The notes beneath the pieces were generated by a model, which saw only the letters and a list, made by a program, of their open reading frames with translations, did no database searches and was not told where the DNA came from. Position numbers and translations under genes: made by a program. Positions 23,306-24,262 of a stretch of DNA of 64,000 nt are shown piece by piece; the first letter of the stretch is position 1, and each line of letters starts with the position of its first letter. Source of the stretch: Candidatus Aminicenantes bacterium. GTDB taxonomy: Bacteria; Acidobacteriota; Aminicenantia; Aminicenantales; Saccharicenantaceae. The stretch is from NCBI GenBank assembly GCA_963754085.1, contig CAVWFA010000003.1, positions 135,854 through 199,853 on the forward strand. The letters run 5' to 3'.

Positions 23306-23397
23306 GACGGCAGCCTCAACTCTCTTTGACCTTGGCGATCGAGCAGGCCCGGTCCTTGTCTTCGAGCTTGATGAGGCGGACGCCCTGGGTGGCCCGG
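23306..23397 (-). pseudogene. displaced copy of the gyrA 3' end (last 28 codons, stop and 10 nt of trailer); left copy of a 92-bp direct repeat
   Basis: Hand alignment with 24171-24262 gives 86 of 92 identical. On the minus strand it reads ..[26 protein letters not shown]-stop, against [26 protein letters not shown]-stop in the functional gyrA. Confidence 0.8.
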
Positions 23398-23448
23398 TCG
23401 GCCGCTAAGGCTATTTTTGACCGCGGCCTTATGTGCTATAAGTACCCC

Positions 23449-23787
23449 ATGAAGATCGTCGATTCCCAGATCACGTTGAGCGAGCTCAAGGTCTTGGCCG
23501 AAGGGCGCTTCGGAAATCTGGTCAAAGCCGTTGTGGACATCGAGCGAAGGATCATGGCCATCGACGGGGAGCTCCACGCGGACGAGGAAGCGCTCCTGTT
23601 GGAGAACGGGTCCCTCCAGGAGAACCTCTGGGGGATCAACATCTATCCTGAGCTGGAAGGCCCGGAGCGGATCGAATTCGATTCGGTCATCAATATCCGC
23701 CCCTCTCAGGGGAACCTCTCCCGCGGCGTCGATGATCCCGCAGTCCGAGAGAGGGTCATTCAAACCGTCTTGGGATTGATGAAATGA
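23449..23787 (+). CDS. small conserved protein, resembles the family I recall as DUF5674
   Basis: ORF 23326..23787. The start was moved to MKIVDSQ (in frame) because the upstream part of the ORF is the antisense of the gyrA remnant. Motifs AVVDIERRIMAIDGELHADEEALLLENGS.QENLWGINIYPE and NIRPSQGN. The family name is from memory and unverified. Confidence 0.65.
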   Translation: MKIVDSQITLSELKVLAEGRFGNLVKAVVDIERRIMAIDGELHADEEALLLENGSLQENLWGINIYPELEGPERIEFDSVINIRPSQGNLSRGVDDPAVRERVIQTVLGLMK

Positions 23788-24134
23788 CTCCCCCGCAGCA
23801 CGAAACGCTCGCGGCCGGCCGGTGGCAGGCTTTCTCCCTGGTCGAACAATTGGCCAACGTCGGGAGCGAGGTCGAGCGAGCCCTCAATTGGCTCGACAAG
23901 CGAAATCCCGAATACAGCCGGCTGGCCTTCCTCCGGGCGCTGGAACTCCTCAATCTGACCATTGCCGATCCCCGGCATCGGCGCCGCCTCAAAGAGCTGA
24001 CCCGTTTGCGGGAAGCCCTTCTCGACTTCTTCCTCGGGGATAACGCATTCAAGTCGACCGGAAAGAGCTGGCGCGACTACTTCTACGGTTTCGCCTACGC
24101 GGCGGCCTTGAGCAGGACGCACAACCGGCTCTGA
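23784..24134 (+). CDS. hypothetical all-helical 116-aa protein, translationally coupled to the preceding gene
   Basis: ATGA overlap with the preceding gene. Sequence MTPPQHETLAAGRWQAFSLVEQLANVGSEVERALNWL... No family recognised with confidence. Any resemblance to a MazG-like helix is only an impression. Confidence 0.55.
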   Translation: MTPPQHETLAAGRWQAFSLVEQLANVGSEVERALNWLDKRNPEYSRLAFLRALELLNLTIADPRHRRRLKELTRLREALLDFFLGDNAFKSTGKSWRDYFYGFAYAAALSRTHNRL

Positions 24135-24170
24135 TCGCCGTCGAGCCCTAAGTCGCGTAGCGCAGGATTC

Positions 24171-24262
24171 GACGGCAGGCTCAACTCTCCCTGACCTTGG
24201 CGATGGAGCAGGCCCGGTCCTTGTCCTCGAGCTTGATGAGGCGGACACCCTGGGTGGCCCGG
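24171..24262. repeat. right copy of the 92-bp direct repeat (functional gyrA 3' end)
   Basis: See 23306-23397. The differences are 3 synonymous codon changes, one K/R codon (2 nt) and one trailer position. Confidence 0.8.

Follow-up and report, generated by a model that had tools for sequence, protein, structure and literature searches.

A two-gene DUF5674 cassette between a functional and an orphan gyrA 3′ end in an Aminicenantes lineage

We analysed a stretch of 64,000 nucleotides (nt), here called the window, from a Candidatus Aminicenantes bacterium (assembly GCA_963754085.1, contig CAVWFA010000003.1, positions 135,854 to 199,853 of the forward strand) and found that a 773-nt accessory operon was gained between gyrA and a membrane GDPD gene in one Aminicenantes lineage. 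The insert consists of this 773-nt cassette and a 92-nt gyrA end. The cassette is made up of a promoter, read by eye, a gene for a DUF5674 protein and a gene for a four-helix partner, both on the plus strand and overlapping. Its arrival may have involved displacement of the resident gyrA 3′ end, anchored by homology and without an integrase encoded by the element, a reading that we favour with reserve and at somewhat less than an even chance. The features at the insertion are as follows (coordinates are positions in the window; L numbers are loci fetched for comparison).

21278 to 23158, minus strand: membrane GDPD gene, next downstream of gyrA in the ancestral arrangement (Pfam GDPD and GPDPase_memb; 82% orthologue in L165).
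23264 to 23281, minus strand: hairpin ATGGGAC-loop-GTCCCAT with a perfect 7-bp stem, in the same place after gyrA in L165.
23306 to 23397, minus strand: orphan gyrA 3′ end, 86 of 92 positions identical to 24171 to 24262; its flank aligns with the gyrA–GDPD intergenic region of L165, and it is also present in L171.
23398 to 23448, plus strand: left insert margin with a promoter-like sequence (by eye), TTGACC at 23417 to 23422 and TGcTATAAG at 23434 to 23442, the latter ending 6 nt before the ATG.
23449 to 23787, plus strand: gene 1, DUF5674 protein of 112 amino acids (Pfam PF18924).
23784 to 24134, plus strand: gene 2, uncharacterised partner of 116 amino acids, whose start overlaps the gene 1 stop (ATGA).
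24135 to 24170, no strand assigned: right insert margin, with no homology to other cassette loci past 24143.
24171 to 24262, minus strand: functional gyrA 3′ end (upper copy), continuous with the gyrA frame 24181 to 25710 and 88–94% identical to gyrA ends in 80 relatives.
24181 to 26668, minus strand: gyrA, the target and anchor gene, in two overlapping open reading frames (ORFs), 24181 to 25710 and 24335 to 26668.

The direct repeat that brackets the insert was recovered both by a repeat finder and by a separate alignment, with 86 identities in 92 positions and a spacing of 865 nt, and a BLAST comparison of one flank against the other across the insert gave E = 2e-37. This bore out a first-pass annotation made from the sequence alone, and the alignment also showed the sharp end of similarity on either side that it had described. 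Read on the minus strand, each copy holds 26 full codons and one further base (79 coding nt), the stop codon and 10 nt of trailer, so the annotation had been correct on the stop and the trailer and had made a small overcount in giving 28 codons. The GyrA translation of both copies ends in R or K followed by ES and the stop. The six differences between the copies were exactly those listed earlier, namely three synonymous third-position changes, an AGG (R)/AAA (K) codon and one trailer base. The upper copy continues the gyrA frame (24181 to 25710 and upstream), and the lower copy has unrelated sequence before it.

Contigs from other samples reproduced the arrangement. A contig of 1944 nt from Joint Genome Institute (JGI) sample 3300036982 (L171) was colinear with positions 23074 to 25017 at 95.8% identity and contained the cassette with both the orphan and the functional gyrA end, and a contig from sample 3300036978 (L001) spanned the junction between cassette and gyrA. 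Since L171 reproduces both copies together with the cassette, the structure is not an assembly artefact. By scanning metagenome contigs with the GyrA C-terminus we collected 80 other Aminicenantes gyrA loci, with 69–96% amino-acid identity and gyrA ends 80–94% identical in DNA, and the cassette was present in none of these 80 loci. An empty site was found in L165, where gyrA is followed by about 35 nt, the hairpin ATGGGACnnnnGTCCCAT, a conserved spacer and then a GDPD gene 82% identical to that of the window. In the window, the L165-like trailer, hairpin, spacer and GDPD upstream region are joined to the orphan and not to the functional copy. Because the ancestral trailer, hairpin and GDPD gene are contiguous with the orphan, the orphan is the displaced resident gyrA end, and the comparison with L165, together with the continuity of the frame, agrees with the earlier designation of the upper copy as functional and the lower copy as the orphan. 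The first-pass annotation had proposed a search for an empty site in a relative, and the cassette-free gyrA–GDPD interval of L165 answered it in favour of a genuine insertion. It had also named an assembly artefact or an ancient fixed duplication as findings that would refute it, and neither holds given L171, L001, the 80 relatives without the cassette and L165. Its suggestion that the hairpin was the original gyrA terminator stood in part: the position in the ancestral gyrA trailer was supported by L165, but a terminator function is unproven because the hairpin has no U-tract.

The motif in the left margin recurs at other loci. When read by eye, TTGAC...TGTGATATAT was found right upstream of gene 1 at many loci, and a TTGAC...TG-n-TATAAT-like motif lay about 6–10 nt before the DUF5674 start in the window, L002, L011, L012, L016, L020, L021 and L172. 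This spacing in the sequence suggests that the DUF5674 pair may be transcribed as a leaderless or near-leaderless mRNA. A generic promoter scan made no call at the motif at 23417 to 23442, and we therefore treat the cassette promoter as inferred.

Gene 1 belongs to PF18924, with E = 2.5e-34 and 118 bits against a cut-off of 27, and residues 3–107 align with positions 2–106 of the 109 in the profile. The AlphaFold model of its product is an alpha/beta protein (pLDDT, the predicted local distance difference test, 80); no match was found in NCBIfam, PADLOC or PHROGs and no significant fold neighbour in the PDB with Foldseek. The model of the gene 2 product, confident like that of gene 1, is a four-helix bundle (pLDDT 91) for which the PDB matches from Foldseek were non-significant and FliS-like, and searches of Pfam, NCBIfam, PADLOC, PHROGs and PDB sequences gave no family. 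Neither protein matched a known toxin, antitoxin, defence or transposase family in Pfam, NCBIfam, PADLOC or PHROGs, neither showed a recombinase fold, and a literature search for DUF5674 returned nothing informative. A minimal nucleotidyltransferase paired with a HEPN-like protein was considered from motifs and dropped, as no fold match supported it. The pair is possibly an addiction-like or otherwise often exchanged accessory module. At the right end of the insert, a 9-bp hairpin at 24137 to 24176 (CGCCGTCGA...TCGACGGCA) lies between gyrA and gene 2, which converge here; one arm is in the right margin and pairs over the junction with the duplicated gyrA trailer. It was rejected as a meaningful structure, since its energy was no better than that of shuffled sequences (z −0.8 to −1.4) and it has no U-tract, and Rfam found nothing in this region of the window.

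The gyrA end has received inserts repeatedly. Orphan gyrA ends were present 0.76–4.9 kb past the functional end in 10 of the 80 loci (L100, L107, L114, L138, L143, L150, L158, L161, L162 and L167), and beyond these ten, L106 carries a larger gyrA fragment downstream. In L114 (4760 to 8528) two orphans form a tandem array, with first a beta-lactamase-family gene and then an ABC transporter as cargo. The cargo of other gyrA inserts includes a MazF module (L100), a beta-lactamase-family protein, an ABC transporter, SnoaL, DUF4386, a set of ZIP, TrmO and Fe-S proteins, a hybrid histidine kinase and a polysaccharide deacetylase. The 5′ boundary of the gyrA repeats varies from −32 to −98 and all of them share the last 32 nt and the stop. 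The 3′ boundary ranges from +0 to +25; it lies 1 nt past the stop in 5 of 11 repeats and otherwise at +6, +10/+11 or +25. The trailers past the gyrA stop cannot be aligned between lineages, and the +1 boundary therefore corresponds to the end of homology between lineages.

A source of integrase was sought around these inserts. With Pfam, no integrase was found in or beside any of about 12 gyrA inserts, and the statement of the first-pass annotation that the window insert carries none was confirmed, as only the DUF5674 and four-helix proteins are present. A heuristic scan of 1.47 Mb of fetched sequence for the box-II motif of tyrosine recombinases found none at the 80 gyrA loci or in the window, and ten further ORFs of the window were not recombinases. 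The only match to this motif was in L090 at about 669, 5 kb upstream of the pair on the same contig.

The content downstream of gyrA also differs between loci, with M24 directly following, GDPD, or 0.8–5 kb of other genes. M24 directly follows gyrA in L128, L130 and L164. A gene for an HGSNAT-type acyltransferase lies past M24 in the window (18735 to 19499) and directly after the orphan gyrA end in L143 (8900 to 9628). GDPD and M24 may themselves be older additions to a variable region next to gyrA.

The cassette occurs far beyond gyrA. Copies that are 82–90% identical in DNA were found in unrelated contexts, among others between PRiA4 and patatin genes (L002) and beside esterases (L005) and a fucosidase (L172). 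Homology between these loci begins only about 38 nt before gene 1 and stops 9 nt past gene 2, and there are no conserved termini. Direct repeats bracket the pair at 8 of 78 non-redundant loci, with L172–174 as a ninth. The adjacent co-directional gene supplies the repeat, its 3′ end with the stop, in L021, L061, L074 and L172. This answers another check that the first-pass annotation had proposed: the cassette is indeed found next to other 3′ gene ends and is bracketed by duplicates of those ends. The repeats are 53 nt long in L172–174, 67 nt in L021 and 156 nt in L061 and L074, and the 67-nt repeat in L021 covers the ends of two convergent genes that were both left intact. In L005 and L016 the brackets are 62 nt long, 89% identical and resemble the variable arm, T-arm and 3′ acceptor strand of a tRNA:

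L005, 5822 to 5883 and 6688 to 6749 (equal to L016, 5487 to 5548 and 6353 to 6414): tRNA-like repeats.

With ARAGORN and Rfam, no intact tRNA or tmRNA was detected within 6 kb of them, and both tRNA-like copies appear to be orphans. In L090, an Omnitrophota metagenome-assembled genome (MAG), the bracket is a promoter-like sequence of 35 nt (5560 to 5594 and 6422 to 6456) and not a gene end.

As a control, windows of equal size placed at random in these loci showed repeat matches in 10 of 488 cases; these were paralogues, Fe-S motifs or intergenic repeats, and none was of the 3′-end type. The pair was thus enriched for brackets, both for repeats of any kind (p = 1e-3) and for the 3′-end type (5/78 against 0/488, p = 4e-5).

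We found 2553 homologues of gene 2 and more than 8000 of gene 1. In 80 species-level genomes gene 2 almost always directly follows a DUF5674 gene, and each of these genome loci represents the one copy of the pair in its genome. The hosts include Aminicenantes, Actinomycetota, Omnitrophota, Planctomycetota, Fibrobacterota and one Methanosarcinales MAG. No homologue of the pair was found among PLSDB plasmids or INPHARED phages, and IMG/VR yielded a single marginal fragment. Gene 1 was missing or fragmentary in about one fifth of the genome loci. It was undetected beside an apparently intact gene 2 in L014, L025, L032, L041, L061, L062, L064, L073, L086 and L088, and partial in L023, L027, L029, L039, L048 and L077, which could reflect decay, frameshifts in MAGs or divergence beyond the sensitivity of tblastn.

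The first-pass annotation had described the cassette as compositionally foreign, and its figures were reproduced. The first 60 nt of the gene at 23449 contain 34 G+C compared to 44 in murE, and the cassette uses the codons TTG, AAA, GGA and ATT 3 to 10 times more often than the neighbouring genes do. The G+C content at third codon positions (GC3) is 0.79–0.80 in the cassette genes and 0.92–0.97 in gyrA, gyrB, GDPD and M24. However, in all high-GC genomes examined the GC3 of the pair was below that of the host, and it tracks the GC content of the host from phylum to phylum (0.28 to 0.91). Because the low GC3 is a general trait of the pair in high-GC hosts, it gives no evidence of a recent foreign arrival here, and composition was rejected as proof of one. 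The lowest GC content in the window (0.53–0.57 against a mean of 0.67) is at 28500 to 29300, just upstream of gyrB, possibly a regulatory or origin-proximal region.

The differences between the two repeat copies in the window carry a signature of recombination. The ratio of non-synonymous to synonymous difference (pN/pS) is 0.08, with four synonymous changes and one conservative change; such a bias towards synonymous change would arise with probability 0.014 under neutrality, or 0.08 with one copy decaying. The pN/pS is 0–0.3 in six other repeat pairs and 0.46–0.70 in the old pairs of L074 and L061. When the window, L171 and L001 were compared, the cassette differed by 0.4–1.9% and the adjacent 318 nt of gyrA by 6.3–8.5% (Fisher p 4e-10 to 3e-3), with the high divergence beginning at the stop codon of gyrA. 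Between the two functional copies, 5–6 of 92 positions differ, as many as between functional and orphan copies (6/92). The two orphans are separated by four synonymous differences and one non-synonymous difference, and some variants are common to both copies. Since the cassette is far less diverged than the repeat copies, point mutation since the insertion cannot explain the differences between them. From the sequences, these differences are most readily read as alleles brought in by recombination, at the insertion or later, and not as decay. In this respect the earlier claim that the six differences reflect functional allelic variation instead of a decaying duplicate was supported, both by the pN/pS and by the lower divergence of the cassette. 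Later allelic recombination could give the same synonymous pattern as import at the time of the insertion. A switch from donor to recipient sequence in gyrA upstream of the repeat was not located in comparisons with relatives that are 90–97% identical and give noisy profiles.

We tentatively favour displacement of the gyrA 3′ end. We infer the following route. Incoming DNA with the structure ‘gyrA end + cassette’ would have paired with the resident gyrA via its highly conserved coding sequence, and the other side would have been joined illegitimately 81 nt inside gyrA. This could have occurred by one-ended homologous recombination (homology-facilitated illegitimate recombination, HFIR) or by Campbell-type integration of a circularised fragment. 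The resident gyrA end would then have been left downstream as the orphan at 23306 to 23397, and the second copy at 24171 to 24262 would end the working gyrA. Later, both flanks would keep recombining with cassette-free alleles up to the edges of the cassette, with the consequence that the repeat copies would differ mainly at synonymous sites. Displacement of this kind would explain why integrases are absent and the cargo is ordinary, why the 5′ boundaries vary and several 3′ boundaries fall at +1, how the array in L114 arose, why synonymous changes prevail and how many different genes come to form brackets. At the 80 gyrA loci, gyrA is an anchor gene that borders a variable region, and in the window and about 11 further loci the resident 3′ end is kept as an orphan downstream.

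Several observations weigh against displacement. No donor arrangement was found in the 80 gyrA and 80 cassette loci, a limited sampling. Cargo beside gyrA always came with an orphan, and in the fetched loci the DUF5674 pair was never beside gyrA without a repeat. The inserts hug the pair, with 5–75 nt on the presumed illegitimate side at five loci, which random joints do not predict. Nine of the ten trailer bases are common to the two copies in the window, which fits duplication in situ or a very close donor. In L138, L143 and L162 the pN/pS is 1 or higher, like plain decay of a local duplicate, and the enrichment for brackets suggests that there is something special about DUF5674 cargo. HFIR is also rare where it was experimentally measured (PMC5361080). 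The missing donor, the tight inserts, the shared trailer and the bracket enrichment keep three other explanations alive.

The first of these, possible though on balance doubtful, is duplication in situ, in which a fragment with the promoter and the two genes enters at a long staggered break or through a template switch in replication, the 92 nt of target are doubled into initially identical copies and the differences come from later allelic recombination. With one event per locus it covers the many-gene brackets without a prior donor at that locus, and it is in line with the failure to find donor arrangements. Duplication in place also fits the nearly identical trailers within the window, given that trailers are lineage-specific, and the 67 nt doubled over two convergent gene ends in L021 with both genes intact. 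The pN/pS of about 0.5 or more in L138, L143, L162, L074 and L061 would be expected if one copy functions and the other decays. In contrast, random staggered breaks would not place the end of 5 of 11 gyrA repeats at exactly +1, and duplication alone gives no reason for the frequent targeting of gyrA. It also counts against this explanation that we know of no bacterial mechanism that yields variable target duplications of 33–156 nt.

The second, which we consider unlikely, is site-specific integration by a recombinase supplied in trans, where the insert would be a cis-mobilisable element or the remnant of an island, the repeats would be attL and attR, and the att site of the element would mimic the gyrA end. 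The architecture is the classical one, and elements that are mobilised in cis and carry no integrase are on record. The last 32 nt and the stop common to all gyrA repeats could hold a shared core, the tandem array in L114 resembles accretion at att sites, and the tRNA-like brackets in L005 and L016 also fit. Against this, no integrase was found in the roughly 12 inserts, in their neighbours, in ten other ORFs of the window or, with the motif heuristic, at the 80 gyrA loci, and the same searches of inserts and flanks (Pfam) and gyrA loci (motif) gave no related integrase-bearing element on the same att site. The cargo consists of ordinary metabolic and regulatory genes, both boundaries of the repeats vary, and neither plasmids, phages nor viral contigs contained the element. 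Moreover, at least five unrelated genes supply the ends that bracket this one cassette, so it cannot carry one attP, and its termini are not conserved. For these reasons neither the interpretation put forward in the first-pass annotation, an attL/attR integrative element carrying its own replacement gyrA end, nor the label of a classical integrative element is supported.

The third, very unlikely in our judgement, is that the DUF5674 pair is a minimal selfish element that inserts itself at gene ends, or an addiction module that retains rare insertions. At least seven bracketed inserts of 773–886 nt in different phyla carry nothing but the pair, and the enrichment for 3′-end brackets over random positions (p = 4e-5) points in the same direction. 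So do the compact, overlapping two-gene operon with its own inferred promoter, the absence of known fold relatives for either protein and the MazF toxin module that is the cargo of the gyrA insert in L100. But the pair is single-copy in all 80 genome loci and lacks conserved terminal sequences, its composition tracks the GC content of the host as in a long-resident gene, about ten inserts at gyrA ends share the architecture without the pair, and neither protein matches a known toxin, defence or transposase family. Taken together, the chance that we are looking at an undescribed, integrase-independent capture of small cassettes at conserved 3′ ends in Aminicenantes and perhaps other phyla, with the gene end regenerated and gyrA as a preferred dock, or at a new kind of minimal selfish cassette in which the two proteins of the DUF5674 pair promote their own insertion or retention, appears low.

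That the structure arose in assembly, or is an ancient duplication that every relative retains, has a negligible probability: the window gyrA does contain a frameshift, probably an error of assembly or consensus, but two independent contigs from other samples repeat the junctions, one of them with both copies, and 80 relatives lack the cassette and L165 has an empty site. The frameshift, at about 25776, is due to one extra base, as eight relatives have ATCGCC-CAGCTGGTC or ATCGCCG-AxCTGGTC where the window has ATCGCCGCAGCTGGTC. It divides gyrA into two frames; because the site is polymorphic, an error in the consensus or assembly is a more probable explanation than a pseudogene.

If displacement of gyrA ends is correct, an uncultured, recombining phylum adds accessory genes beside essential core genes without classical mobile-element machinery. 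The orphan gene ends would be scars from which such events could be dated and counted in metagenomes. The gyrA end stands out as a hotspot for gene gain, which matters where gyrA–gyrB neighbourhoods serve as markers. The widespread and repeatedly relocated operon of the DUF5674 gene and its partner is a candidate selfish or addiction-like module.

Four kinds of known system were compared with the insert. A transposon or insertion sequence does not fit, as there was no match to a transposase family, no conserved termini were present, and the duplications varied from 33 to 156 nt. Like type II toxin–antitoxin modules, the pair has two genes for proteins of about 115 amino acids with a stop/start overlap and a promoter, a patchy distribution over phyla and variable locations; unlike them, it resembles no known toxin or antitoxin family in sequence or fold and is found as a single copy per genome. 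As in attL/attR and cis-mobilisable elements, direct repeats double the 3′ end of a target gene that stays intact, the insert contains no recombinase and there is one tandem array, but no cognate integrase is nearby, the boundaries vary, several unrelated genes supply the brackets and the termini are not conserved. The closest known analogue is the displacement of 3′ ends through homologous recombination on one side only, which here affects a housekeeping gene that is essential. A model published for the orphan 3′ regions of type VI secretion system (T6SS) and Rhs loci uses the same one-sided homology (PMC5361080). The C-terminal displacement at Rhs, contact-dependent inhibition (CDI) and T6SS effector-immunity loci, which is attributed to HFIR, likewise combines a conserved upstream anchor, an incoming new end with cargo, an orphan that is kept and arrays comparable to that in L114 (PMC5361080). 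In contrast to those systems, no donor arrangement was seen, the cargo here is unrelated to the anchor, and the anchor, an essential housekeeping gene, receives an equivalent end in place of its own and not a new toxin tip.

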